Virus record (IMG/VR): IMGVR_UViG_3300028833_002727
Source of the DNA: a virus
Lineage: Duplodnaviria; Heunggongvirae; Uroviricota; Caudoviricetes
Length of the DNA stretch: 41,547 bases
Reading direction: 5' to 3' (one strand)
Part shown: positions 3,682-37,889 of the stretch, piece by piece
How the letters are laid out: the number at the start of each line of letters is the position of its first letter
Numbering within the stretch: the stretch's first letter is position 1
Made by a program: the position numbers and the translations under genes
Notes under the pieces: model-generated
What the model was told of the DNA's origin: nothing
What the model saw: the letters and a program-made list of their open reading frames with translations, nothing else
Database searches by the model: none

Positions 3682-4836
3682 ATGGCAAACAAAAGGGATT
3701 ACTATGAAGTGTTAGGCGTTGATAAAAACGCAAATTCTGATGCTATTAAAAAGGCATATAGAAAATTAAGTCTAAAATGGCATCCTGACAAGCATGTAAA
3801 TGATTCAGAGAAAGAAAAGAAAGAGGCTGAAGAAAAATTCAAAGAAATTGCTGAAGCATATGCTGTACTCTCAGATGAAAAGAAGAAACAAGAGTATGAT
3901 ACGTATGGTTTCGGCGGCGGTAGTGCAGGTGATTGGGATTTCGGACATATGAATATGGATGACATCTTCAGTCAGTATTCTGATCTTTTTGGCGGTGGAA
4001 TGGGTGGAGGTTTTTCCGCACATGATTGGTTTGGAGGAATGGGTGGTAGTAGACAATACACACCACAAAACCGTCCAAGACAAGGTACGGATTTGAGAAT
4101 CCGACTAACCCTTACCATGTCTGAAACGCTTAGTGGCGTTAAAAAGAAAGTTAAGATTAAACGTTTTGTTAAGTGTGAGCATTGTCATGGTACTGGTAGC
4201 GAAGATGGTACATTAGACACATGTTTGAATTGTGGTGGTACTGGACAAGAAATTAAAACACAACGTACTGCTTTCGGCATATCTCAAGTAATAACTACAT
4301 GTCACGAATGTGGCGGCACTGGTAAAAATGTTCGTGTTAAATGTCACGAGTGCGGTGGCACTGGCTTAGTTGAGAAAGAGGAAATCCTTGAAATTGACAT
4401 TGTTCCAGGTGTAATGGAAGGCACAGTAATCACTATGCCTGGATATGGTAATTTCCCTAACCGTCCAACTGATATTGATGTTGCCGGTACATTGTTGGTT
4501 GTTATTGGTGAAGTTCTTAGCGATGAGTTCACTCATCGTGGAAACGACATTATCTATAACCTCACATTGGATGTACCAACGGCTGCATTGGGCGGAACGG
4601 TTGAAGTGCCTATACCTAATGGAACAAAAAGGAAAATAAACATCAAGCCTGGTACACAGCCTGGTGCAACTCTCCGTCTACGTGATGCAGGTATCCCAAA
4701 AATTGATGGTGCAGGTAATAAAGTTGGATGTGGTGATTATCTCATAGAGATAACTGTGCATATTCCGGAGAATATTACCGACGAAGAGAAAAAACTTTTT
4801 GAAAAACTGAAAAAATTAGAAGATTCCAAAAAATAA
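3682..4836 (+). CDS. dnaJ: Molecular chaperone DnaJ (type I, full length)
   Basis: J domain with HPD, G/F-rich linker, four CxxCxGxG zinc motifs and a C-terminal substrate-binding domain. Confidence 0.97.
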
Positions 4837-7697: not shown

Positions 7698-8069
7698 ATG
7701 GATAAAAAAGAATTTGTAAAAGGAGAACGTGTCTACGTTCATTCACGTGACACACGGAATAATAGTTATGAAGCAATCGTAACGAGTGTCGGAAAAAAAT
7801 ATATCACATGTAACCAGATATGGGAAAACGGAACAGTATGTGGATATGGTGATAAATTTGATGTAGAATATCTCCGTCGTGTAGATTATGGTTCATTTTA
7901 TCTATATCATAATAAAGAAGAATATGAAGATGAGGCTCGACGTGATACAATTGCAAGGGAATTGAAAGATTCTTTCTCTTACGGAAAATATACTCTTGAA
8001 GAACTCTTGTTATTTAAAGAGATTCATGAGACAGGTATAGAAAAATGGAAAGAAGAACATTATAAATAG
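7698..8069 (+). CDS. Hypothetical protein
   Basis: ORF track, 123 aa. Confidence 0.7.
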   Translation: MDKKEFVKGERVYVHSRDTRNNSYEAIVTSVGKKYITCNQIWENGTVCGYGDKFDVEYLRRVDYGSFYLYHNKEEYEDEARRDTIARELKDSFSYGKYTLEELLLFKEIHETGIEKWKEEHYK

Positions 8070-8257
8070 TGACAGTTATGACAGTGCAAGAATTAATACA
8101 AAAATTAAATGAATTTCCTGGTGAATTTAAGGTAGGTGTTAAAATTCCATATTACGGCCCTGAAGATGAAGTGTATGATATGGAAAGTAATGGAATTGAA
8201 TCTGTTACGGCAGATTATGGCTATAAAGCGGTAAAAATAATTTCAGAAATAATATAA
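8069..8257 (+). CDS. Hypothetical protein (start GTG 8069 or ATG 8078)
   Basis: MTVQELIQKL... start typical of small phage proteins. Confidence 0.65.
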   Translation: MTVMTVQELIQKLNEFPGEFKVGVKIPYYGPEDEVYDMESNGIESVTADYGYKAVKIISEII

Positions 8258-8285
8258 CAGTATATAGATAGAACGCAGAGACTCA

Positions 8286-8372
8286 AAGGAAGTAGGTGAA
8301 AGCCCAGAGGAAAAAGGCTCAGAAAGAGCAAAAAAGAAAGGACAAAATTGAAGCGGAAGCGAAGAAAAAGGC
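8286..8372 (+). pseudogene. Frameshifted partial copy of the gene at 24160-24552
   Basis: 87 bp align to 24238-24323 with 4 substitutions and one 1-bp insertion. Confidence 0.9.
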
Positions 8373-8422
8373 AGATGAAAAATTAATATAGTGACAACAG
8401 TTCAAAAACATTTGAGTTAATT

Positions 8423-9136
8423 ATGACAAGAGAAGAATTAAAAACAGTAAAAAGAGGAGAATTTCTTTATGTTCCTATTATAACTAAACATTATGGACAC
8501 AGTGCGGGGAATAGAATAATTGGAAACTATGATTATCCTATGTATGAGTTATTCCGTTTAAAAGTTGAAGATATTTGTGTTTTTGATTATAATGAATTTT
8601 TGATTACAAACGGCGGTGGATATATAATTGAATCTATTGAAAAATCAAAAACAGAGGCATTACAACGAAGAAAAAATTTAGAGGAAAAAGGAGAGTTGGA
8701 AGATTTTGAAAAATTTCTTCCGTTAACACCATGGTGGTATGGTGTGAAAACATTAATAGTTAAATTTGATTTATCTAAGTTGGATAATGATACACAAGAA
8801 CTATTTGATGATACTTATCGTAAATACAGACCAACATTTTTTAGTGATATTGATTATTACGATCCTGTTTTTGGCGATCCTATGGATGTATATAAAAATT
8901 ACTTATCATTTCCTTTAACAGGAAGAGATGGTGTAGTAACAAGTGAAAATGGTTTTAAAGACACCTATTCATATAGAGCATTAAAATTATTTTCAAAAAC
9001 TAAAAAGAACGGGCAAAATATAGTTAAAAATGAAAATCGTGAATGGCTAAAATATATTGATGATGAAATTGAATTTCTTAAAAAAGCAAAAAACGATTTA
9101 ATTAAAATTTCTAAAAAAGATGGTGTATTAATATGA
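8423..9136 (+). CDS. Hypothetical protein
   Basis: ORF track, 237 aa, no motif recognised. Confidence 0.7.
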   Translation: MTREELKTVKRGEFLYVPIITKHYGHSAGNRIIGNYDYPMYELFRLKVEDICVFDYNEFLITNGGGYIIESIEKSKTEALQRRKNLEEKGELEDFEKFLPLTPWWYGVKTLIVKFDLSKLDNDTQELFDDTYRKYRPTFFSDIDYYDPVFGDPMDVYKNYLSFPLTGRDGVVTSENGFKDTYSYRALKLFSKTKKNGQNIVKNENREWLKYIDDEIEFLKKAKNDLIKISKKDGVLI

Positions 9137-9170
9137 TAACAAAATAAATAATAATTTGTGTATTTGAGAT

Positions 9171-10307
9171 ATGGGAAAATTAAAAACCGTAGGTTATGAA
9201 TTAAGGGATGTTGCGGTAATGCAAGCCCCAGTATCGTTTTGTAATCACAGAGGTGATGTAAATCCATTTATTGAGGTATGCAACAGAGAAGTGTATCCTA
9301 TCTTTGTTGCACCGATGGCTTCCGTAACAGATCAGAATAATTACAAGACATGGATTGATAATAAATTGACACCAGTAATTCCTCGTAGTGTGAAAAAGAG
9401 TGAGAACAATCCAAATGGCTTAACATTTGAAGAGAGAATGGAATTAGCAAAAGAGACATTTGTTTCTATTTCTCTTAAGGAGGCACAAAATGAATTATAT
9501 AATTATTTAGATGTTAGTGAATATGGTTCTCTTGCATATACCTGGTATATTTGTATAGATATTGCTCATGGAACATTGAGCGAACTTTACGATATATGTA
9601 AAAAACTTAAATCAGAATATGGAAAACATATAGTTCTTATGACTGGTAATGTCGCAAATCCAAGTGCGTATTCTTTTTATGCTGATGCTGGTGTGGACTA
9701 CTGTCGTGTTGGAATTGGAGGTGGATCTCGCTGTACGAGTAGCGCAAATGTTTCAATTCACTATGGAATGGCGACACTTTTAGACCAAATAAATGAAGAA
9801 AGAAAAGCATATGCACACTCCCACAATGGAAATGCACCAACTAAGATTATTGCTGATGGCGGAATTGGCTGGTTTGATGATATTCAAAAAGCATTAGCAC
9901 TTGGGGCAGATGCGGTTATGGCTGGAAAGATTTTTGCAGAGTGTGAAGAAGCATGTGAAGAAATCTACTGGGCTGAAAGTTTGGAAGATGCAAAACGCAA
10001 AGAATTAAGATATTATAACTGTGATGAATTACCAGAAGGAAAATGGTTTAGGTTCCGTGATTACTATGGAATGAGTAGTAAACGTGCACAACTTCAGATT
10101 TCTGATGATAAAACAAAACTGAAAACATCTGAAGGTATTGATAAACCTGTAGAAGTAAAATATCCTGTTACAAAATGGGTTGACAATATGCAGTCTTATT
10201 TAAGAAGTTGTATGACATACACCAACTCGCATACAATTAAAGAATTACGAGAGAATGCACAGGTTATTATTCTTGGAGGTTCAGGTGATGCTGCGTATAG
10301 AAAATAA
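9171..10307 (+). CDS. GMP reductase / IMP dehydrogenase family oxidoreductase (no CBS domains)
   Basis: DIAHG, GNVA, GIGGGSRCTS (catalytic Cys loop), IIADGGI, ALALGADAVMAG, YYGMSS...EG. Confidence 0.88.
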   Translation: MGKLKTVGYELRDVAVMQAPVSFCNHRGDVNPFIEVCNREVYPIFVAPMASVTDQNNYKTWIDNKLTPVIPRSVKKSENNPNGLTFEERMELAKETFVSISLKEAQNELYNYLDVSEYGSLAYTWYICIDIAHGTLSELYDICKKLKSEYGKHIVLMTGNVANPSAYSFYADAGVDYCRVGIGGGSRCTSSANVSIHYGMATLLDQINEERKAYAHSHNGNAPTKIIADGGIGWFDDIQKALALGADAVMAGKIFAECEEACEEIYWAESLEDAKRKELRYYNCDELPEGKWFRFRDYYGMSSKRAQLQISDDKTKLKTSEGIDKPVEVKYPVTKWVDNMQSYLRSCMTYTNSHTIKELRENAQVIILGGSGDAAYRK

Positions 10308-26160: not shown

Positions 26161-26583
26161 ATGGATAAGAAGTGGATATATTACGGTGTATTTTTCTCTG
26201 ATGTGACAAAAAGAGCGTTGTTTGATTACACAGCAAAATTATCAGTGGAAAAGGGTTTTGTTATTCCAGATGATTGGAAGTTATATGGTGACCACATGAC
26301 GCTTGTTTTCAATGATAGATCAGAGAAAGCACAGGAAGACGCTGAATTTTATGAGGAACAGTTAGTAGGTAAAGATGTTAGCCTACGAGTTACACACGTT
26401 GGTGTATCGGATAGAGCAGTTGCTCTCGGAGTGGATTACCAAACAGCAAACGAACATTCACATATTACCATTGCCATTGCTCCAGATGCGAAACCAGTTG
26501 AAAGTAACGATATTACTAATTGGATGGAAACTAACGGTAGTTTCTATGTTACTGGTAAAGTCAATAAGTTTGTAAAACACTAA
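26161..26583 (+). CDS. 2H phosphoesterase (tRNA-ligase CPDase-like)
   Basis: Two HxT motifs (DHMTL, SHITI) and AKPVESN. Confidence 0.8.
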   Translation: MDKKWIYYGVFFSDVTKRALFDYTAKLSVEKGFVIPDDWKLYGDHMTLVFNDRSEKAQEDAEFYEEQLVGKDVSLRVTHVGVSDRAVALGVDYQTANEHSHITIAIAPDAKPVESNDITNWMETNGSFYVTGKVNKFVKH

Positions 26584-26587
26584 CGAT

Positions 26588-27316
26588 ATGGGAAGATTAA
26601 ATACAAAAATAACAAAAGAATACGATGTTAAGGGTGAACATCCTTTCAGTACTGTATTCGATATGCGAAGAGAGAATGAGACGAAATGGAAGAAAATCCA
26701 ACGTTGGTTCTCTGTTCGCTGGTATGCTTTGGACATAAAGTACCACGAGGTTAAGAAATACTTCAAAAACCTTGTTCGCTTCAATAAAGCAATGTGGAAC
26801 TATTGTCCTTGGGACTACCATTGTCAAGTAGAGTTGTTTGCATATGGGCTTGAAATACTTGCCAATCATATGGATAGATATGGTAACGAAATTGATACTC
26901 CACGTAAGAAGAAAATTGCTGCAATTCGTGAGTTGATTACGTTACTCCGTAATGGTTATGAGGATGAAGTGAACGACAAATATCTTGGCGCTGGTGAAGA
27001 AAACGTTATTACTCATGTAACAGAATATGAGGATGGCAGCATTGGTTTTGAAACTGTGGATGATGAAAGTAAAAAAATTCAAGAGGCGTCAAACAAAGTA
27101 TATAGAGAGGAATATCAAAAAGCGCGTAACGCTTATTATGATAGAATCTTTGCAATTCTTCGTGGACAAGACGACCCTTATGGATTAGCCGAACAAATAC
27201 AAACAAAAATCGGTGAAAAACGCGAAGATGAAACGTATGATGAATATCAAAAACGATATGACGACTGTTACTATGAATTCTTCGACGGCACAGGTATTGA
27301 AGGTTGGTGGGATTAA
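26588..27316 (+). CDS. Hypothetical protein
   Basis: ORF track, 242 aa. Confidence 0.7.
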   Translation: MGRLNTKITKEYDVKGEHPFSTVFDMRRENETKWKKIQRWFSVRWYALDIKYHEVKKYFKNLVRFNKAMWNYCPWDYHCQVELFAYGLEILANHMDRYGNEIDTPRKKKIAAIRELITLLRNGYEDEVNDKYLGAGEENVITHVTEYEDGSIGFETVDDESKKIQEASNKVYREEYQKARNAYYDRIFAILRGQDDPYGLAEQIQTKIGEKREDETYDEYQKRYDDCYYEFFDGTGIEGWWD

Positions 27317-27341
27317 CCATAAAATACAAAAACTAAATGTT

Positions 27342-27470
27342 ATGGATGCTACATACTTAAATAAGTTTCGAAAGAAGAAAAAGAAATTCAGACGGATTAC
27401 TCAGGAAGAGTATGATAGTTTCCATAACTATAACATTGAGTCTAATTCAATAGACAGAGATAGAGAGTAA
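27342..27470 (+). CDS. Small basic hypothetical protein (42 aa)
   Basis: Start revised to ATG 27342. Confidence 0.5.
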   Translation: MDATYLNKFRKKKKKFRRITQEEYDSFHNYNIESNSIDRDRE

Positions 27471-27480
27471 ACATTGTTTA

Positions 27481-28830
27481 ATGGCTACAACATCAAAAAA
27501 TAGGATGGATTATAATAATTATGATTTTTCTGTTGCGTCAACATCACGTAGCAAAAATGAAATAGGAAAACGTGTAGGTATTTTTGGTGGTTCATTCAAT
27601 CCAATTCACATTGGGCATTTTAAAACCGCAGAGTATTTACTTGACAAGGGTTATTTGGATGAGGTTCGCTTCTTACTTAACCCATGTTCTCCGTTCAAAG
27701 TCAAAAACTACATGCCTGACGCTTATTTCAGGTCTATGGCTATCTTGTATGGAATTAACTCACTGCCAGCAAAACAGAAAGCAAAGATGGATTTGGATAC
27801 AACAGAAATGTTGGACTCTATTCAAAACCATGTTTGTTACACCGTAAATACTTTGAAAAAAATCCTATACACGGATATTGAAAACAAAACATTCAATGAG
27901 TATTTCCTTATTGTTGGTGCTGATGTATTCAATAGTATCAAACGTTTCAAGAATTGGAAATGGTTCGTTGATGAAAAACTCGTTAAGTTCATTGTTTTAC
28001 CAAGAGGTGGATACGAAATTGACGAAACATTGCGTGAAGATTTCAAAGATTTAATTGTAGATACAGATTACACTGGATTCAACCCGATTGAACTGTCTTC
28101 TACGGCAGTACGTGAGTGGATTACAAATGGCAACGACACTAAATTAAAAGAAGTACTCGCGCCTGGCACATACAAATACATCACATCCACGAAATTATAT
28201 GGCTATCCGAATAACAACACAATGGAGTTAGCATTACCTGTGAAAGGTAAAAAAACCACAAAACGTGATGTTTATAAACCCCAAGTTTATACGAGGGATG
28301 AATGTAAACAGATGTTGAAATCAGGACGTTATGATTTTGGTTCATCATATGACATTTACATTGATAACGCATTTGGTGTTGTTAAAACAACTATGAACGG
28401 CGGATATACACGATACAACGTGTATGACTATTCAACTGGCGAAGTTGTATGTGACGAGTGGTTCAAGAGTGTTGGTAAGCCAAGAACGTTCGATGAACGT
28501 AAAATGGCACCTGATAATAATTTCAATTTCCAACACGATTACGAACGATTCAATACAAAAATGTTTGAAACTGATAATTCAACTTATTATTGTATTGTGG
28601 ATACAAATTTGAAAGTGACAGTTGGACGTGACCAGGTTGAAACTGCAAAGAATGTACTTGTATTCAACCATGATTCATGTTACTATCTATTCAAAGATTG
28701 TGTAATTGGTAACAATTTCATCACAAGGATAGAAAATAGTGGTGTATATGGCGTTGTTTTCATTACATTGAATAATGGAACGCAAATAGAATATAACCTT
28801 ATAAAAGGTACAAACAAAATAGTAAAATAA
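27481..28830 (+). CDS. nadD: Nicotinate/nicotinamide mononucleotide adenylyltransferase with a ~200-aa C-terminal extension
   Basis: GIFGGSFNPIHIGH (HIGH motif), IVGAD, LPRGGY, ELSSTAVRE. Confidence 0.88.
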   Translation: MATTSKNRMDYNNYDFSVASTSRSKNEIGKRVGIFGGSFNPIHIGHFKTAEYLLDKGYLDEVRFLLNPCSPFKVKNYMPDAYFRSMAILYGINSLPAKQKAKMDLDTTEMLDSIQNHVCYTVNTLKKILYTDIENKTFNEYFLIVGADVFNSIKRFKNWKWFVDEKLVKFIVLPRGGYEIDETLREDFKDLIVDTDYTGFNPIELSSTAVREWITNGNDTKLKEVLAPGTYKYITSTKLYGYPNNNTMELALPVKGKKTTKRDVYKPQVYTRDECKQMLKSGRYDFGSSYDIYIDNAFGVVKTTMNGGYTRYNVYDYSTGEVVCDEWFKSVGKPRTFDERKMAPDNNFNFQHDYERFNTKMFETDNSTYYCIVDTNLKVTVGRDQVETAKNVLVFNHDSCYYLFKDCVIGNNFITRIENSGVYGVVFITLNNGTQIEYNLIKGTNKIVK

Positions 28831-28844
28831 ATACAACAGAGAAT

Positions 28845-29594
28845 ATGGATAAATTTGACGCAAAAAAAGTAACCGAACAACTCATACAAGGTATAAGAGA
28901 TTGGTTCGAAAGAAATGGTAATGGATGTAATGCGTGCGTTGGAATGTCTGGTGGTAAAGATAGTACAATTGTTGCAGCATTGTGTGTTAAAGCGTTAGGC
29001 GCCGATAGAGTAATCGGCGTTGGTATTCCAGACAAAGGACAAGATTTACATGAGGCAGATGAAATTGCTAAACATTTTGGAATACAATTTCATGTGGTAA
29101 ATATTGGAAGTATCACCGACGCAATTAAGCAAGAAACATATTATGGCGGTAATGTACGATTGTCCGAACAAGCAGAACAAAATATTCCGCCACGTGTGCG
29201 TATGCTAATTTTGTATGCAATTTCGCAATCTAACAACGGACGTGTTGTTGGTACATGTAATGCAAGTGAGAACTACATTGGTTATTTCACTAAATATGGT
29301 GATGGCGCATCCGACTTCGAGCCTATCGCTGAATTGACGGTACATGAGTTGTACCAGGTTGGTGATGAGTTGGGTATTCCGAAAAAATGGACGTACAAGA
29401 CTCCTGATGACGGACTACCTCACAGTATGCCAGATGATGAGAAGTTTGAAAAGAAAGGTTTCAACTATGAGAAGTTAGATAAATATATCCGCTTGGGAAC
29501 CAGTGGTGATGCTGTTGCTGATGCTGCTATCGAGAAAATGCACGCTCAGAACGCATTCAAAATGAAACCTGTAGAGGTAATAAAATTCAATTAA
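28845..29594 (+). CDS. nadE: NH3-dependent NAD+ synthetase
   Basis: VGMSGGKDS, RVRM..LYA, GTCNASE.YIGYFTKYGDG; no glutaminase domain. Confidence 0.95.
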   Translation: MDKFDAKKVTEQLIQGIRDWFERNGNGCNACVGMSGGKDSTIVAALCVKALGADRVIGVGIPDKGQDLHEADEIAKHFGIQFHVVNIGSITDAIKQETYYGGNVRLSEQAEQNIPPRVRMLILYAISQSNNGRVVGTCNASENYIGYFTKYGDGASDFEPIAELTVHELYQVGDELGIPKKWTYKTPDDGLPHSMPDDEKFEKKGFNYEKLDKYIRLGTSGDAVADAAIEKMHAQNAFKMKPVEVIKFN

Positions 29595-29599
29595 GATAT

Positions 29600-30499
29600 A
29601 TGAAGAAATTATTTATACTTTCCGGAGTACCTTGCTCAGGAAAATCAACTTGGGCGAAAGAATATAAACAAAACGTTGACACAAATGTTGTTATTGGCAA
29701 CCGTGATACTATCCGTTACGAACTTGGTAACGGTAAATACGTGCAGGATCAGGAAGATGAAGTAACACGTATCGAAACTGAACGTGTTGAGAATGGTATG
29801 AAGGCTGGTTTAACAGTCATCCTTGATGATACCAACCTTAATCCTAAATACATTAAGCCGTGGTATGATATGGCTGAAAAGTATGGGTATGAGGTTGAGG
29901 AAAAAGAGTTCTACATTCCATACCAGCAAGCAATGAAACGTTCCAAAGCGCGTAAGGCTGAGGGTGGTTTATACATACCGAAAGAAGTAATGCAGAGGTT
30001 CTACAAACGTTACTACAAAGAAGAGTTTGAAAAAGAACTTACCGATTACCGTGTATTCAACACTGTAAAATGGGAAGATGATTTACCAACCTGCATTATT
30101 TGTGACTTGGATGGTACATTAGCAATGCACACCGGGCGTACACCATTTGAGTGGGATAGGTTAGATGAAGACAAAATTGATAAGCGTCTTGCATTAATGT
30201 TGGAAATTTACGTTAACAATATTGATGACTGTGAGGTTATATTCCTAACGGGGCGTCCAGATAGTGCGCGTGAAGCAACTGAAAACTGGCTTAAAAAGAA
30301 TTTTAATGCACCTTATACATTACTCATGCGCGATAGTAGCGACTACAGTCATGGATATGATGCAAAAAAGAAAATCTACGAAGACTACATCAAAGGAAAG
30401 TACAATGTCCTATGTGTTTTCGAAGATTCTAACAAGTGTGTAGACATGTGGAGGGAGCAAGGACTCTTAACACTGCAAGTTCAAAATGGGGATTACTAA
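29600..30499 (+). CDS. pseT: Polynucleotide 5'-kinase / 3'-phosphatase (T4 PseT-like)
   Basis: P-loop GVPCSGKST, RD, DDTNL; HAD domain DLDGT, TGR, FED...VDMWR. Confidence 0.92.
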   Translation: MKKLFILSGVPCSGKSTWAKEYKQNVDTNVVIGNRDTIRYELGNGKYVQDQEDEVTRIETERVENGMKAGLTVILDDTNLNPKYIKPWYDMAEKYGYEVEEKEFYIPYQQAMKRSKARKAEGGLYIPKEVMQRFYKRYYKEEFEKELTDYRVFNTVKWEDDLPTCIICDLDGTLAMHTGRTPFEWDRLDEDKIDKRLALMLEIYVNNIDDCEVIFLTGRPDSAREATENWLKKNFNAPYTLLMRDSSDYSHGYDAKKKIYEDYIKGKYNVLCVFEDSNKCVDMWREQGLLTLQVQNGDY

Positions 30500-30517
30500 C
30501 AATCTCCATTTTTTTTT
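30485..30517 (+). terminator. Intrinsic terminator overlapping the pseT stop
   Basis: 10-bp stem AATGGGGATT / AATCTCCATT (one G-U), loop ACTAAC, T7. Confidence 0.75.
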
Positions 30518-31671: not shown

Positions 31672-31684
31672 AATTTGAAATGTT

Positions 31685-32020
31685 ATGATAGAAACAGAAT
31701 TAGACAAAATTAAGTTAACTCAGAAAATCATTAAAGACCCAAGAAACAAATTTGGGTATCAACCAGATTCATTATGGATTAACGAAGATAATGAATTTGA
31801 GTATGAAACGCATATTGTAATCTGGGGCACAGATAAACGAGGTGTACATGATTCAAATAAACACGAAGTTCTTTATTTAACCGAAGAAAAACTGGCTAAT
31901 GGGCATATCATATATTGGTTTAGAGTTGCGCCAGGTGATTGGAAAATCAGAGTAAGAACTGCTGGTGATTTACAAAGGCTCATGGATGTGTTTAGAATTG
32001 GAAGAGATTTAATTGTATAA
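31685..32020 (+). CDS. Hypothetical protein
   Basis: ORF track. Confidence 0.7.
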   Translation: MIETELDKIKLTQKIIKDPRNKFGYQPDSLWINEDNEFEYETHIVIWGTDKRGVHDSNKHEVLYLTEEKLANGHIIYWFRVAPGDWKIRVRTAGDLQRLMDVFRIGRDLIV

Positions 32021-32025
32021 TTGAT

Positions 32026-32466: not shown

Positions 32467-32716
32467 GTGCTACAATAAGATATGTGACTGGTTTCTGTTA
32501 GCCAGCAAGAAATACAGGTTTGTACTTAACCGAATTTTTTTGGCTATTATAGCATCAGCCGCATTGGTTAGAATACTATTCATATCATACAATGAGTGGG
32601 TATTATGCACGTTCCTATTATCGTGTATTTGTATTCTACTTATCAATGAGATTGAAAAAAAAGGTAAAATTTTTGGTTATTTGAAAAAAAATTACTACTT
32701 TTGCACTGTAATTTAA
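32450..32716 (+). CDS. Small two-TM membrane protein
   Basis: Two hydrophobic segments; start revised to ATG 32450; 3' end contains a promoter. Confidence 0.5.
   Translation: MDGLSKCYNKICDWFLLASKKYRFVLNRIFLAIIASAALVRILFISYNEWVLCTFLLSCICILLINEIEKKGKIFGYLKKNYYFCTVI
32672..32705 (+). promoter_or_regulatory. Bacteroidota primary-sigma promoter
   Basis: TTTG 32672-32675, 20-nt spacer, TACTTTTG 32696-32703. Confidence 0.85.
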
Positions 32717-32729
32717 AAAAATAAAAAAT

Positions 32730-32969
32730 ATGGATGCAAAAACCAAAAAAGAAATTTACGATTTACTTTGTGAGTTAAAAGAAAAAGGCAAGGTATTTAA
32801 CATGATGAACGGTTCATTATATTCAAGCATATGTGCAGATGAAATGACTGACATCACATATAAACTACAAAGCATACACTCTGTTCATGTAGATTTTTAT
32901 CAACCGTGTGAGGGTAGAGTAGTATTTCTTAATCTCGATAAATTGATAGATGAATATAAATGTAAATAG
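32730..32969 (+). CDS. Hypothetical protein
   Basis: First gene after the promoter. Confidence 0.7.
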   Translation: MDAKTKKEIYDLLCELKEKGKVFNMMNGSLYSSICADEMTDITYKLQSIHSVHVDFYQPCEGRVVFLNLDKLIDEYKCK

Positions 32970-32975
32970 TTCACT

Positions 32976-32991
32976 ATGGATAAGATGTGGG
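32976..32991 (+). pseudogene. 5' fragment (MDKMW-G) of the gene interrupted by the IS607 element
   Basis: Joins in frame to 36067-36272 across the GG core. Confidence 0.75.
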
Positions 32992-33069
32992 ATTAACACT
33001 GTAATTCAATAAAATAATCAAAAAAAGTTAAAAATGTTCAAAAATATGCAACTTTTTCAAAAATTGAAA

Positions 33070-33078
33070 GTATTTATA
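33070..33078 (+). promoter_or_regulatory. GTATTTATA motif inside the IS left end
   Basis: Same motif class as at phage genes; abuts ATG 33080. Confidence 0.45.
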
Positions 33079-33079
33079 T

Positions 33080-33310
33080 ATGAAAAATAAGATAAATATA
33101 AAAAAGACAATTGAGACAATGAAAGAACAAAACCTACAAGTTCTGTCTATTGATAAGGAAAATATGGTATACACATGCAGTGATGGAAACGAATATCCAC
33201 TTATGGATGGTATGGAGAATTTAACCGTAGACGAGTTGCAGAAACAATTGGATAATGCAAAACAAACAACCTATAATATACTAAAACAAATTGAAGAAGA
33301 TAATGGATAA
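33080..33310 (+). CDS. Small hypothetical protein (76 aa) inside the IS607 element
   Basis: Lies between the inferred left end and tnpA and overlaps the tnpA start. Confidence 0.7.
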   Translation: MKNKINIKKTIETMKEQNLQVLSIDKENMVYTCSDGNEYPLMDGMENLTVDELQKQLDNAKQTTYNILKQIEEDNG

Positions 33311-33941
33311 ACTATTAACATTAGAGGAAACCAAACACATCCTTAATGTTAGTAAATCCACGCTTCAACGATGGGATAACTCAGGGAAGTTAGTTGCATT
33401 AAGGACTGAAGGCGGGCATAGACGATGGAAACAAAGTGATATTGATAAACTAATTGGTAAGAAAAACGAAGCACCCGAACCATCTAAAAAAGAATATATC
33501 GTGGCTACTTATGCAAGATGTTCAACTCCTGACCAGAAAGCACATGGTGATATTGAAAGACAATCTGATAGAATATTTGAATACTGTGTAAAGCATAAAT
33601 ATCGAGTCGAACACATTATAAAAGACATGGGTAGTGGACTTAATGATAAAAGAAAAGGTTTTGTAAAATTATGTAAACTCGTTATTGACAGAAAAATAGA
33701 CAAGGTAGTTATTGAACACAAAGATGGGTTGACTCGATTTCAGTATAATCTCATTGAATTGTTTTTCAATAGTTACGGAGTTGAAATCGAACTGCTTGAT
33801 AAAACAGAGTACACTGAACAACAGGAATTAGTGAATGACATGATGATGCTGATTGCGAGTTTCAGTGGAAAGGTATACAGTCTTAGGGCGAAGGAGAATG
33901 CTAAAAAGAGAAAAGAAATAAAAAACAAAAACGAAGAATAA
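33303..33941 (+). CDS. tnpA: IS607 transposase TnpA (MerR-like HTH plus serine recombinase), possibly impaired
   Basis: TLQRWD..GKL...RTEGGHRR; YARCST, GSGLN.KRKG, EHKDGLTRF (G in place of the R of DRLxR). Confidence 0.92.
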   Translation: MDKLLTLEETKHILNVSKSTLQRWDNSGKLVALRTEGGHRRWKQSDIDKLIGKKNEAPEPSKKEYIVATYARCSTPDQKAHGDIERQSDRIFEYCVKHKYRVEHIIKDMGSGLNDKRKGFVKLCKLVIDRKIDKVVIEHKDGLTRFQYNLIELFFNSYGVEIELLDKTEYTEQQELVNDMMMLIASFSGKVYSLRAKENAKKRKEIKNKNEE

Positions 33942-33942
33942 T

Positions 33943-34416
33943 ATGAATACAACAGTAAGTAATGTAAAGAAAGAAATTGTAGTTTCTTTTAGTAAGAATG
34001 AGGTAGAAAAGAAAATGAAGTATTTGTGTGCTCATAGTGAGTATTACAAATCTTTTGACGAAAGTGAAAAATTGCTTGGACTTTACAAGTATCACTTTAA
34101 AAAACCTATTAGTGGGCTTGTTGATGTTGGCATGCAAGTACACATTACATTGTTTGAAGAAGGTGAAAATAAAACTAAAATCACAATTGAAGTTGTTGAC
34201 AACTGGAATGGAACAGATGAGTTTGACATTGATAGTTCAAACATCTTAATTGGTGAAGTAACAAAAAGTTTAACACACATCTTAGAAACAAATGTAAACG
34301 ATTTAGAGAATGAAAGACAAACCACAAAAAAGAAAATGAATGGGTGTTTAAAAGCATTCTTAATTGGTATTGGAATTTTTGTAGCCATAAGTGTGATAGT
34401 TGCAATATGTTCATAA
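33943..34416 (+). CDS. Cargo protein with a C-terminal TM anchor, located between tnpA and tnpB
   Basis: 157 aa; hydrophobic C-terminus FLIGIGIFVAISVIVAIC; TAATATG junctions on both sides. Confidence 0.75.
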   Translation: MNTTVSNVKKEIVVSFSKNEVEKKMKYLCAHSEYYKSFDESEKLLGLYKYHFKKPISGLVDVGMQVHITLFEEGENKTKITIEVVDNWNGTDEFDIDSSNILIGEVTKSLTHILETNVNDLENERQTTKKKMNGCLKAFLIGIGIFVAISVIVAICS

Positions 34417-34417
34417 T

Positions 34418-36058
34418 ATGATTACACAGAGTAAATATGGCAAGGGATTTGTGTCACATGACATGACTCGTCAGAAATATGGTGAGTTATATTCCTTTGC
34501 TGTATCTATTCGTAATCACAAAAACAAAGTATCACAATACGTATGCAATAACCTGTTACATTTCTTAGAATATAATAGGTATCAATTCCTAAAAGAAATG
34601 CGAACCGCATTTAATGGTGATATACCTAGTTCATTCGATGCACAAGCATATCAACAAGTATTCGATGCTTATCAAAATAAATTCGATGGTATACAACGAA
34701 AACTGAAATTTGAAAACATATTATTTGTCGGATTTGAATTTTACAAGCGTGATACCAAGAAAAATAAGAAAGGTGGTTTAAAGAAAGTTGTAACTAAGCA
34801 CAGCGATACTCCACTATCTACCTGTCTAACCTATCTCGCAAGATATGGAAATGAGAATATTGTAGAGTATATCACGAATCAACTACCAACGTGTGACAAT
34901 AAGAAACGGACGTTCTATGAAAATATACTGAGATGCTGTGATAAATTCAGTTTTAATAGACTCTATAAGTTAGCATTATCTAAACGAAATAGAACAATAT
35001 CGCATTATGCAGAACATCCAATAGAATTCAAATCCTTAACATTTAGTGGTAGAAGTAGGAAAACTAAGATAGTTGATTATAACTCGCATTACGGGTCTGT
35101 GATAAACAGTTATATTTCACTATCAGGAATTGGTAGGAAATCATTTGATATACCAGTTAAGTTTAGTAAGGAATACCATGGCAGCATGAAAGACTACTTC
35201 AAATCTAACCCTGATTATGAATACACATTGACGTTTAACGAGAAATATAAACAAATTTGTGTATATTTGTGTAAGGACGGCGAACGATACATACCACAAG
35301 CAGGAGATAACGTAATTGGTATAGACGTTAATTGCAAACACAATCTTTTCAGCCTATCTGACGAAACCACATATGATTATGATAGGAAACTCGTTAACGA
35401 CTATTGTAAATTCTGTTTGGAGGTGGATAAACTAAAAGAGAACAAAGGATACAAAGTAGGCAAACGTAAACAACAGAAACTCGATACACTAAAGGTTAAA
35501 ATTGTTAAGTCCGAACAACAACTTATCGCAAACATGTGTAAAGAACTACAAGCACAAGGTGTAAACCACATAGTGATGGAGGATTTGGATAATGGATTTG
35601 GAAAGTGTTATGTAAAAGACGCAGACAATGAGGATATAAACTATAATAGAAAGGTTAAATTCCTTGGTTTAAGCAGTTTAAAACAAGAGGTAGAACATAT
35701 TGCAAGAAAATACGATATTGCAGTATCCACTGTGCAAGCAAGTTACACAAGTAAGATGTGTCCTATTTGTGGGTGCATAGAGGACGAAAATCGTCCAAAT
35801 CAGGAAACATTTAAATGCATTGAGTGTGGATATGAATCAAACGCAGATTTCAATGCTGCAACTAATATAAAAAATAGAGTGTGTGAAGCCGTGCTTCGCA
35901 ATATGCTCTTAAAACAACTTGATAATGGTGCTTATGAACCGAGGAAACTTAAACGTGAAAAGGTAAAAGAGGTACTATTATCGTTTCGAAGAAGCCTACA
36001 GAAAAATATGGGTAGTGAATGTAGAGAATGTATTGTGAATACATTTGAATATGTTTAG
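34418..36058 (+). CDS. tnpB: TnpB RNA-guided nuclease (546 aa, long form)
   Basis: RuvC-I IGIDVN, RuvC-II IVMEDL, zinc finger CPICG...CIECG, RuvC-III NADFNAATNI; start revised to ATG 34418. Confidence 0.92.
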   Translation: MITQSKYGKGFVSHDMTRQKYGELYSFAVSIRNHKNKVSQYVCNNLLHFLEYNRYQFLKEMRTAFNGDIPSSFDAQAYQQVFDAYQNKFDGIQRKLKFENILFVGFEFYKRDTKKNKKGGLKKVVTKHSDTPLSTCLTYLARYGNENIVEYITNQLPTCDNKKRTFYENILRCCDKFSFNRLYKLALSKRNRTISHYAEHPIEFKSLTFSGRSRKTKIVDYNSHYGSVINSYISLSGIGRKSFDIPVKFSKEYHGSMKDYFKSNPDYEYTLTFNEKYKQICVYLCKDGERYIPQAGDNVIGIDVNCKHNLFSLSDETTYDYDRKLVNDYCKFCLEVDKLKENKGYKVGKRKQQKLDTLKVKIVKSEQQLIANMCKELQAQGVNHIVMEDLDNGFGKCYVKDADNEDINYNRKVKFLGLSSLKQEVEHIARKYDIAVSTVQASYTSKMCPICGCIEDENRPNQETFKCIECGYESNADFNAATNIKNRVCEAVLRNMLLKQLDNGAYEPRKLKREKVKEVLLSFRRSLQKNMGSECRECIVNTFEYV

Positions 36059-36086
36059 TTCTTCGGACATATTAGCAAGTTTGTAT
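35870..36086 (+). ncRNA. Predicted TnpB omega/reRNA (scaffold in the tnpB 3' end, guide from the right flank)
   Basis: Position inferred from TnpB biology; hairpin TGTGAAGC-CGT-GCTTCGCA at 35882-35900. The 5' boundary is a guess. Confidence 0.5.
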
Positions 36087-36272
36087 TATGGTAAATGTAC
36101 ATTCCAAGAGTTATGCGAACGTGATTTCTTAAAGGGAACATGTGAGTATGGCGTTGATACATTCTTGCGACTTTTGTTGAAACGTGGTTTGGTTAGGGAA
36201 AGCAGCAAAGGCGTTTGGAGTGCAACCAAAGAGGCAAAGAAAGAGTTAGTAAATAGAGGATATTTCGCATAA
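36051..36272 (+). CDS. 3' part of the IS-interrupted gene, with an in-frame ATG supplied by the IS right end
   Basis: MFSSS-DILASLYYGKCTFQELCER...; native N-terminus is MDKMW at 32976. Confidence 0.65.
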   Translation: MFSSSDILASLYYGKCTFQELCERDFLKGTCEYGVDTFLRLLLKRGLVRESSKGVWSATKEAKKELVNRGYFA

Positions 36273-36276
36273 GATT

Positions 36277-36447
36277 ATGAAATTATATGTAGCAAAAGAT
36301 AGTGATGGCACAGTGTGTTTATACACAAAAAAACCAGTTAGGCGCAATTACGAGACTGGCCATTATGAATACGATCCTGATGGAGGACAGTACGCAGAAG
36401 TCCCCGAATTAGTTGACGGTGAAGTTTATGAATTAAATTTTGTTTGA
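36277..36447 (+). CDS. Small hypothetical protein (56 aa), absent from the ORF track
   Basis: MKLYVAKDSDGTVCLY...; ATG 36277 to TGA 36447. Confidence 0.65.
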   Translation: MKLYVAKDSDGTVCLYTKKPVRRNYETGHYEYDPDGGQYAEVPELVDGEVYELNFV

Positions 36448-36733: not shown

Positions 36734-37273
36734 ATGGATAAGGTAATTGAAAAAGGAAAAGAGTTAGCCTTTCTGTTACGTCACGATACTGACAGTTTTG
36801 AAAAAGGCTTGATAGATAAAAATGGTTGGCGCCAAGTTAGTGAGTTGGTGAAACATCACGACTACACCAAAGCGCTGCTCGACGAGATTGTTGAGACAAA
36901 TAATAAACAACGCTACGAATACGATGAACACAAAATGCGTATCCGTGCAAGACAAGGACATTCGATTCCTGTTGAAGTAGATTTAACAGAAGTTACAGAA
37001 TGTGATTTTTTGTGGCACGGTACGAGCAACAGATTCTTCGATGACATTATGCGCGATGGTTTGAAACCACAGAGCCGCTTATATGTTCACCTTTCTGGAG
37101 ATCAGGAAACAGCAAAGAACGTTGGTGAGCGTCACGGTGGTAAATTGAGAATCATCAAGATTGATGCCGCTAAGATGATTGAAGATGGTGAGAAAATTTG
37201 GATTTCAAATAATGGTGTGTATCTCGCTAAGAGCGTTGATCCAAAATATTTTATAGAAACAATTTATGGATAA
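36734..37273 (+). CDS. kptA: RNA 2'-phosphotransferase (Tpt1/KptA)
   Basis: LLRH, NNKQRY, IRARQGHS, LWHGT, YVHLS, VGERHG. Confidence 0.95.
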   Translation: MDKVIEKGKELAFLLRHDTDSFEKGLIDKNGWRQVSELVKHHDYTKALLDEIVETNNKQRYEYDEHKMRIRARQGHSIPVEVDLTEVTECDFLWHGTSNRFFDDIMRDGLKPQSRLYVHLSGDQETAKNVGERHGGKLRIIKIDAAKMIEDGEKIWISNNGVYLAKSVDPKYFIETIYG

Positions 37274-37889
37274 AAAAAATAGAAAAATGGACAAAAAAAT
37301 TCGTGTTTTGATTTTGATTGATATGCAGAATGATTTCATATCTGGTAGTTTAGCAAATCAGGAGGCACAGGCTGCAATTCCTGCAATTCTTGAAAAGATT
37401 AAAAACTTTGATGGTGACGCCATCTATTTGACTATGGATACGCATCAAAAAAATTATCTTCAAACACCTGAAGGTGAGAAATTACCTGTAGAACATTGTA
37501 TTTACGGTACGAAAGGATGGGAAATTAATGAACAGGTAAGGGATGCTGTAGAAGCACGCGAATTACTTGGCATGAAAGTGGAATATATAACAAAGCCAAC
37601 ATTTGGTTCGGTTGAACCAACTTGGGGATGTGATAAATCTCTTATAGAGTTAATTCTTGACATGGAATTGAAAGCTACGCGCGAAGATGGTAAGAAAGTT
37701 CCTATGAAGATAGAAATTTGCGGTTTCTGTACCGACATATGTACTATCTCTAATGCTTTGATTCTTAAAGCATATACATATGATTTCGCTGAAATCACCG
37801 TAGATAGCACATGTTGCGCAGGTGTTACGCCAGAGAAGCACAATGCTGCATTGGAGGTAATGAAATCTTGTCAAATTAACGTAATCTAA
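37266..37889 (+). CDS. pncA: Nicotinamidase (isochorismatase family)
   Basis: IDMQNDFISGSL, DTH, EHCIYGT.GW, KPTFGS, GFCTDIC. Confidence 0.88.
   Translation: MDKKNRKMDKKIRVLILIDMQNDFISGSLANQEAQAAIPAILEKIKNFDGDAIYLTMDTHQKNYLQTPEGEKLPVEHCIYGTKGWEINEQVRDAVEARELLGMKVEYITKPTFGSVEPTWGCDKSLIELILDMELKATREDGKKVPMKIEICGFCTDICTISNALILKAYTYDFAEITVDSTCCAGVTPEKHNAALEVMKSCQINVI

Follow-up and report, generated by a model that had tools for sequence, protein, structure and literature searches.

A probable autonomous IS607-family transposon with a captured phage gene in codon 5 of a jumbo-phage gene

IS607-like elements are known in viruses. As described for the family, they excise without a scar, depend on a strict GG core, use a TGGG target that is also the target-adjacent motif (TAM), and owe their retention to TnpB (10.1101/2023.11.20.567912; PMC13565253). 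The 5′-TGGG-3′ target and TAM was determined experimentally for a Clostridium IS607 TnpA_S/TnpB pair (bioRxiv 10.1101/2023.11.20.567912), and the mechanism and the ends of these elements have also been described (PMC6188088, PMC4058570, PMC13565253). Considering that they have neither inverted repeats nor a target duplication, their boundaries are hard to define. Cargo on TnpB transposons with a serine recombinase has been reported as rare (PMC10691335). We analysed a stretch of 41,547 nucleotides (the window) from the IMG/VR virus record IMGVR_UViG_3300028833_002727. The virus record that contains the window has 183.6 kb and an estimated completeness of 54%, which implies a jumbo phage. Very probably, the window holds an autonomous IS607-family transposon of 3,075 bp, inserted in codon 5 of a jumbo-phage gene; this judgement covers the element together with the mechanism proposed below, taken as a whole.

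An earlier note on this DNA had placed the ends at two GG dinucleotides enclosing four open reading frames (ORFs), and both the letters and the ORFs were found as it gave them. At the left junction ATGTG (32985-32989) is followed by GG (32990-32991) and ATTAAC (32992-32997). At the right junction the TAG stop of tnpB (36056-36058) is followed by TTCTTC (36059-36064), GG (36065-36066) and ACATAT (36067-36072), the right GG falling six bases past the stop. Three contigs, L019, L020 (100.6 kb) and L021, share synteny and 86-98% nucleotide identity with the window and are free of the element. At the insertion point they read ...ACTATGGATAAGATGTG-GGA-CATATTAGCAAG..., that is, left flank, GGA and right flank (ATGTG-GGA-CATATTAG), which gives ATGTGGGACATATTAG, the empty site that had been predicted. 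In these relatives an upstream ORF of 78 or 81 aa is followed directly by a 73-aa gene, and orf76, tnpA, orf157 and tnpB are all missing. The note had held that its reading would fall if relatives without tnpA and tnpB kept positions 32992-33310 or the cargo gene, or joined at other bases; the three contigs lack both and join at the predicted bases. The ends are not due to chance, because the empty-site relatives join at the same bases and the 12 distinct copies described below share the end.

The alignments of the two flanks to the empty site of L020 (blastn) overlap by 3 nt, GGA, and this trinucleotide is common to both junctions (32990-32992 and 36065-36067) and to the empty site. The location proposed for the ends is thus exact in the relatives, but the ambiguity is of 3 nt and not of 2, and the element spans 32990/32993 to 36064/36067. 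There is no target duplication, GG stands at both junctions, the empty site is scarless, the 5′ target is a G-rich TGGG that matches the predicted TAM, and there are no terminal inverted repeats (no inverted k-mer of at least 7 nt is common to the left end, LE, and the right end, RE), all as in IS607. The features of the ends are the following.

32988..32991, plus strand: TGGG target motif, predicted TnpB TAM (left-flank comparison and published IS607 motif).
32990..32992, plus strand: left copy of the GGA crossover core (3-nt blastn overlap at the L020 empty site).
32993..33079, plus strand: LE, non-coding, with three TCAAAAA(T) repeats (alignment to the copies L016 and L030, repeat search).
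36065..36067, plus strand: right copy of the GGA crossover core, where homology among all copies stops (copy alignments, empty site).

Homology to L016 and L030 begins at 32988. The non-coding LE measures only 87 nt (32993-33079), and a motif derived from it has 3 matches in the window, which is no clear enrichment, as 4 of 100 shuffles gave at least that number.

Between the ends, four co-directional ORFs form one tightly packed operon, in which the ATG of tnpA overlaps the stop of orf76, and orf157 is separated from each of its neighbours by one base (TAA-T-ATG).

33080..33310, plus strand: orf76, conserved small accessory gene of an IS607 subfamily (copies upstream of tnpA, profile family).
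33303..33941, plus strand: tnpA, IS607-type serine transposase (Pfam, NCBIfam, alignment).
33943..34416, plus strand: orf157, captured passenger encoding a tail-anchored membrane protein (missing from sister copies, free-standing homologues).
34418..36058, plus strand: tnpB, 546 aa from ATG, with RuvC D/E/D and zinc finger intact (Pfam, motif alignment).

We placed the start of tnpA at the ATG at 33303, the ORF lister having given a TTG at 33291. TnpA is full length and its YARCST serine motif is conserved in the alignment. By Pfam, residues 8-55 match PF12728 and PF00376 (MerR-like helix-turn-helix, HTH) and residues 72-208 match PF00239 (resolvase), which is the order of domains in IS607 serine recombinases, the MerR-like HTH at the N-terminus and the catalytic domain at the C-terminus. 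Against NCBIfam NF033518 (transpos_IS607) it scored 179.9 bits and passed the equivalog cut-off of 110. In TnpB the TNB domain PF07282 was found with 58.7 bits, and the motifs GIDVN, MEDLD and NADFNAA are conserved in 15 TnpB copies, all full length. The zinc finger CPICG...CIECG is kept in all of them except the distant L036 (CPICW, a zinc cysteine lost). The protein thus has the RuvC D-E-D triad and the zinc-finger TNB domain of TnpB/OMEGA nucleases; its score against guided_TnpB was 92.7 bits, just below the cut-off of 100, and in a phmmer search of the PDB its C-terminal RuvC/zinc-finger region matched Cas12f/TnpB-like chains with E ~1e-12. Since the mobile unit holds four ORFs and not only tnpA and tnpB, it is a variant and not a canonical member of IS607. 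The earlier statement that such elements normally contain only those two genes is too strong if it is taken to mean that cargo is never carried, given the rare cargo already reported (PMC10691335).

The insertion lies between TGGG and A in codon 5 of the 73-aa gene, whose two parts now stand on either side of the element.

32976..32990, plus strand: orphaned first five codons (MDKMW) of the 73-aa host gene (translation; proteins P0002 and P0003).
36051..36272, plus strand: interrupted host gene, MFSSS-DILASLYY... (translation from the RE ATG).

Excision at the proposed bases would fuse ATG GAT AAG ATG TGG to GAC ATA TTA... and restore a 73-aa ORF that starts MDKMWDILASLYY. With the downstream piece as the only query, a protein search gave two 73-aa proteins, P0002 (99% identity) and P0003 (87%), which are uninterrupted and start MDKMWDILASLYY and MNKMWDILASLYF, respectively; they are encoded on L020, L021 and L019. 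In the window, the host gene is open in frame from an ATG at 36051, which the RE provides and which overlaps the tnpB stop (ATGTTTAG), and the N-terminus MDKMW-DILASLYY... becomes MFSSS-DILASLYY.... Taking into account this overlap and this frame, the host protein can probably still be made, with MFSSS in place of MDKMW. The host gene piece had no match in the related-locus search of viral contigs and was missing from five sister jumbo-phage records.

Whether the RE start codon acts as a translational patch that rescues the host gene was weighed with the positions of other insertions. Empty sites were reconstructed for 10 of them; 8 of the 10 are spanned by a co-directional ORF in the same TGG/GAx phase, the one that the RE ATG serves, and four (those of the window, L018, L006 and L008) lie 4-11 codons from the start of the host ORF. 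In the background, the coding strand carries 74% of the TGGGA motifs and 60% of in-ORF TGGGA sites are in the TGG/GAx phase, so that neither the phase nor the orientation of the insertions is remarkable. Same-phase TGGGA sites within 12 codons of a start are 3 of 85, and by a binomial estimate 4 near-start insertions out of 8 would arise by chance with a probability of ~1e-4. We place the patch somewhere between doubtful and evenly balanced. If it were true, the RE start codon coupled to the tnpB stop would be a protein-level counterpart of IStron splicing, and insertions would survive preferentially in the first codons of genes.

Close to an even chance is given to the alternative that the swap of N-termini is accidental, the 73-aa gene being dispensable or dead and the ATG coming only from the TnpB C-terminus (..EYV-stop) and from the coding of the RNA structure described below. 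The bases of the RE ATG are indeed constrained by the TnpB C-terminus, and the RE as a whole by tnpB coding and RNA pairing; the favoured phase is the one that holds most in-ORF TGGGA sites anyway. Several observations weigh against a patch and fit an accident. Two copies have ATA in place of the RE ATG, and distant copies are found mid-gene or in another phase: L034 lies 138 codons into a host ORF of 177, in a different phase, and L031 among genes of the opposite strand. The enrichment at 5′ ends comes from 10 partly related insertions with heuristic gene starts; the start of the L018 host gene was not confirmed, its only relatives (62% identity) having a different, longer N-terminus. The host gene piece is 99.5% identical to that of L020 (1 difference in 207 nt), which gives no evidence of selection on the gene after the insertion. 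An accident, in turn, has to face 4 of 10 insertions within 11 codons of a gene start where ~4-8% are expected by position, the ATG kept in all five copies (window, L004, L008, L016 and L018) where a host ORF clearly continues in frame downstream, and its overlap with the tnpB stop, which is a classic coupling arrangement.

Returning to the element as a mobile unit, a TnpB protein search among IMG/VR contigs of up to 363 kb gave 16 loci, corresponding to 12 distinct insertions, with 71-77% protein identity. All 12 end ...TTTGAxTATGTTTAR-TTCTTCGGA and then diverge completely. Among the 12 close-copy left junctions read, TG precedes GGA in 10, the exceptions having CG and AA, and the three most distant copies have AG, CG and GG at this place. 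L004/L005 and L006 carry orf76 and tnpA upstream of tnpB. L012/L013 carry tnpA and then an unrelated 139-aa ORF, the contig ends cutting tnpA and hiding any orf76. Of orf76 only the first bases are left in L003 and L016, together with the LE and a remnant of the tnpA N-terminus. Among the sister copies in jumbo phages, the majority are minis without tnpA (LE-tnpB-RE) whose nuclease motifs are intact: in L008, L009/L010, L011, L014/L015 and L018 only ~130-230 nt of LE-side sequence stand directly before tnpB, and L007 has the same layout with an outermost LE that is not alignable. The search for a copy at another locus, suggested in the earlier note, gave L030, which is 89% identical to positions 32988-34929 of the window and contains orf76, tnpA, orf157 and the start of tnpB in the same order. 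The junction, TGGGATTAAC, is exactly where its homology starts, and the 1.58 kb to the left are unrelated to the window; the contig ends inside tnpB and its right end is unseen. This comparison points to a joint movement of the four genes.

A degenerate copy and an isolated fragment were also seen. The scan of genome contigs with the orf76 alignment gave one degenerate copy, at 3911-6172 of L040, a 360-kb contig labelled as a Bacilli metagenome-assembled genome; it has an intact orf76, an N-terminal tnpA remnant and a frameshifted tnpB. A second TTCTTCGGA right-end motif, at 3746-3754 of this contig, ~160 nt upstream of the left end, suggests adjacent or nested insertions. In one sister phage record an isolated fragment (G003:C1:33614-33838) holds the last 75 TnpB residues only, at 65% identity and away from the full copy, as a solo remnant of the right end and RNA region.

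The copies bear on whether the element still transposes. Two results weigh against an autonomous transposon: the 54%-complete record has one copy only, and a scan for sigma-70-like promoters and terminators gave no signal above shuffled expectation, so that expression of the element would rest on read-through. It was considered that the element no longer transposes and spreads by TnpB-guided or general homologous recombination, with tnpA as a decaying passenger; the single copy would agree with this, as would the loss or decay of tnpA in most sister copies and a record with two solo copies where there is no cognate tnpA but only a serine recombinase of 29% identity. We judge this improbable, because the window tnpA is full length, has the serine motif and passes the equivalog cut-off, and because at least 12 insertion sites with exact ends, together with the unrelated flank of L030, require recent real transposition.

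The last part of tnpB may have a second role. The last 267 nt up to the GG were aligned for 12 distinct copies, and RNAalifold gave a consensus of 70 pairs, with compensatory changes at 21.

35820..36066, plus strand: ωRNA-like conserved RNA structure over the tnpB 3′ end (RNAalifold covariation).

In this consensus 96.4% of the cells are paired, compared with 36-48% when the partners were shifted by 1-3 columns, and none of 500 shuffles reached the observed covariation. The terminal TTCTTCGG pairs with TCGAAGAA, ~75 nt upstream. Since these bases encode protein as well, some of the conservation comes from the coding; the compensatory changes speak for an RNA structure at the tnpB 3′ end. OMEGA systems have a structured ωRNA at the 3′ end that stops at the transposon boundary, and the predicted structure agrees with this. 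A TnpB of ISFba1 type (PMC11061315) was ruled out, since no RAGATH-18 was found at E <= 1 and the match to NCBIfam IS607_TnpB (NF038280) failed, with 33.9 bits against a cut-off of 350.

An IStron-like element, which would remove itself from the host transcript by splicing of a group I intron, was also considered, given that IStrons of the IS607 family exist, use TGGG sites and insert into genes. It can hardly be held here, as a permissive Rfam scan of 32700-36400 (E <= 1) gave no group I intron, no RAGATH-18 and no other family, and as the non-coding LE is so short. That orf76 or orf157, or both, are phage backbone and the true insertion sequence is tnpA-tnpB alone has nothing in its favour beyond the textbook two-gene layout, and is refuted by the empty-site relatives that lack both ORFs, by L030, which carries both in unrelated flanking DNA, and by homology with other copies that starts at 32988, upstream of orf76.

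With both ORFs inside the mobile unit, the earlier reading of a cargo-carrying element with two extra genes is supported, but the two are not equivalent: orf157 is a captured passenger, and orf76 is a conserved core gene of an IS607 subfamily, as its distribution tells. Copies of orf76 with 58-91% identity lie upstream of tnpA in L004, L006 and L030. A profile search over 1.84 billion representatives gave a family of 43 cluster representatives, mostly of 60-90 aa, with the conserved core ...SIDxEN..C.DGNEYPL...EELQ..D.AK; a match of 2,569 aa, a repetitive Ig-domain protein, was taken as spurious. Three distant members were examined, and each lies directly upstream of an IS607 tnpA, followed by a tnpB of 540-555 aa with no intervening gene. 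In all the contexts examined, the next gene after orf76 is tnpA, which in one degenerate copy is reduced to a remnant. Three-gene elements orf76-tnpA-tnpB measure 2,576-2,592 bp, and the 3,075 bp of the window minus the 475 bp of cargo give 2,600.

The AlphaFold2 model of orf76 (predicted local distance difference test, pLDDT, 86) consists of a short helix, a three-stranded meander and a long C-terminal helix. Considering the translational coupling and the strict co-occurrence with tnpA, orf76 might be a TnpA-associated regulator, which we offer as a guess. Co-folding of TnpA with orf76 scored 0.39, against 0.01 for the best control, a weak value in a range (up to 0.60) where passes are more often wrong than right; 58 of 80 solved complexes pass this mark, and so do 2 of 110 mismatched pairs. 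The runs agreed in at least 59% of contacts, with a partner pLDDT of at least 68. It counts against such a role that orf76 has no recognisable fold or family, the model having no match in the PDB at E <= 0.001 (Foldseek) and the protein none in PHROGs, PADLOC, Pfam or NCBIfam.

The passenger orf157, which ends in a C-terminal hydrophobic membrane anchor, was seen among the sister elements only in L030. The same slot is empty in L006 and holds unrelated ORFs in L004 and L013. Homologues with 64-67% identity are free-standing in the phage-like contigs L022-L029, in four of which (L026-L029) they are ordinary genes in phage-like gene arrays, and the homology of orf157 to these genes begins at the ATG. 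A direct repeat was detected around the cargo.

33938..33951, plus strand: left copy of the 13/14 direct repeat ATAATATGA(A/T)TACA around the cargo (sequence comparison).
34413..34426, plus strand: right copy of this repeat, in which the native tnpB start ATGATTACA lies (sequence comparison).

The flanking ATAATATGAATACA and ATAATATGATTACA hold the native cargo start and the native tnpB start, respectively. The free-standing homologues start natively with ATGAATACA (L022), L026 having ATGAACACA, and tnpB starts with ATGATTATACA in copies without cargo or with another cargo (L006, L013). By these comparisons, orf157 is a true passenger, a phage gene captured as an exact ORF, and the capture probably occurred by microhomology at ATGA(A/T)TACA, between tnpA and tnpB. 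As for its function, the AlphaFold2 model (pLDDT 75) has an N-terminal alpha/beta domain that weakly resembles the helix-grip (START/Bet v 1) fold; the matches to helix-grip, BamC and KA1-like structures were only middling (Z 8-9.6), and no function was assigned. Neither orf157 nor the other passengers (L004 orf92 and L013 orf139) gave anything in PHROGs, PADLOC, Pfam or NCBIfam. For orf157, the ESM Atlas had hypothetical clusters only, and the related-locus search of viral contigs gave no match. In L022-L025 (for example L022 6001-7436), the homologues of orf157 lie tail-to-tail with a gene for an IS1595-family DDE transposase, with a 4-nt overlap; the gene family thus adjoins a second kind of transposase too.

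By analogy with the published systems, we propose that TnpA would excise the element as a double-stranded circle, with the donor resealed scarlessly by a crossover at the GG core. The predicted circle junction has the RE ...TTCTTCGG joined to the LE ATTAACAC.... The ωRNA would be transcribed from the tnpB 3′ end and read into the flank, from 36067 onward, which would serve as the guide.

36067..36086, plus strand: predicted target matching the ωRNA guide, immediately 3′ of the RE (from the published TnpB mechanism).

TnpB-ωRNA would then cut empty sites, formed by the TAM TGGG followed by ACATATTAG..., and recombination of the cut site with an occupied genome would restore or spread the element. 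An occupied site would be protected, because there the LE sequence follows the TAM. In a phage, the result may be a homing drive from one replicating or co-infecting genome to another, including presumed homing from phage to phage, and such a drive would account for the prevalence, among the sister copies, of minis that lack tnpA and keep their nuclease motifs intact. A wider scheme, which joins a limit on cost at the level of translation, a survival bias by the start codon, orf76 as partner or regulator of TnpA, and a TnpB-ωRNA drive of cargo among jumbo phages, remains tentative and, as one package, rather unlikely.

The neighbours of the element are genes of RNA repair and NAD metabolism. 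This block surrounds it at window positions 26500-30500 and 36734-37889 and, from the Pfam annotation of the relatives, includes tRNA-ligase CPD-like, cytidylyltransferase-like, NAD synthase, PNKP-like kinase/phosphatase, RNA 2′-phosphotransferase and isochorismatase-family genes. In the INPHARED phage collection (megablast, blastn and tblastn) there was no match for the locus, the left flank or the host gene. The window and its close relative L020 differ in other places. At 37889/37890, L020 has an additional segment of ~1.4 kb (its 7887-9311) with a 473-aa DUF723 gene, placed between the isochorismatase-like gene and the next ORF and missing from the window; it may be another mobile insertion. 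Another indel is orf111 (31685-32020; indel 31676-32024 by blastn breakpoints), present in the window and not in L020, where its neighbours abut. The 207 nt after the insertion (36066-36272) differ from L020 in 1 base, whereas the surrounding flanks are only ~87-94% identical; this contrast indicates a locally recent exchange or a mosaic segment at the insertion site.

The locus offers a filled site and its empty counterpart, resolved at the level of the base, together with ~15 related copies. It shows that IS607 elements of one lineage can acquire a phage gene, as a passenger cut exactly to its ORF, and carry it to another locus. It also defines the small orf76 protein family, a constant companion of the transposase and a candidate regulator of serine transposition. 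The many tnpA-less copies with intact nuclease motifs in giant phages would be a natural system for tests of a TnpB homing drive between viruses, and the long TnpB, the putative guide scaffold embedded in coding sequence and the predicted TGGG TAM may interest genome editing. We found no earlier description of orf76 as an IS607 core gene, of a phage gene whose capture is documented by resolved junctions and by a second site of insertion, of abundant tnpA-less minis with intact nuclease motifs in jumbo phages, or of a start codon carried in the right end.

Compared with the IS607 family (H. pylori IS607, IS1535 and the Clostridium elements studied with CboIStron), the element shares the serine transposase with a MerR-like HTH and tnpB downstream, the lack of terminal inverted repeats and of target duplication, the GG core, the scarless empty site and TGGG as the predicted TAM. 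It differs in having four genes instead of two, with the 76-aa gene upstream and the passenger between tnpA and tnpB, in its long TnpB (546 aa) and in its residence in a jumbo phage. With ISFba1-type elements (PMC11061315) it has in common a TnpB linked to a serine transposase and the logic of a 5-nt G-rich TAM, RNA guidance being here a prediction; unlike them, it has no RAGATH-18 RNA as its right-end guide RNA (reRNA), its scaffold overlaps the coding end of tnpB and is not a non-coding tail, its TnpB is ~160 aa longer, and its flank is TGGG and not AGGAG or GAGGG. With respect to the cargo transposons of the Ser-3 branch (PMC10691335), what is resolved here is the origin of the cargo, its ORF-sized boundaries with the 13/14 repeat, and the ends at the level of the base.

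Like IStrons (10.1101/2023.11.20.567912; PMC13521648), the element is inserted within a gene at TGGG and has TnpA_S, TnpB and an ωRNA, putative in this case, and both face the need to limit the cost to the interrupted gene. Unlike IStrons, it has no group I ribozyme at the 5′ side (no Rfam match at E <= 1), and any mitigation would be translational, by the RE start codon, and not by splicing. Finally, as with the free-standing Seg and Mob homing endonuclease genes of T-even phages, a selfish phage nuclease could cut the empty allele in a co-infecting relative (PMC13565253), with the difference that here the recognition would be RNA-guided and the element has its own transposase.

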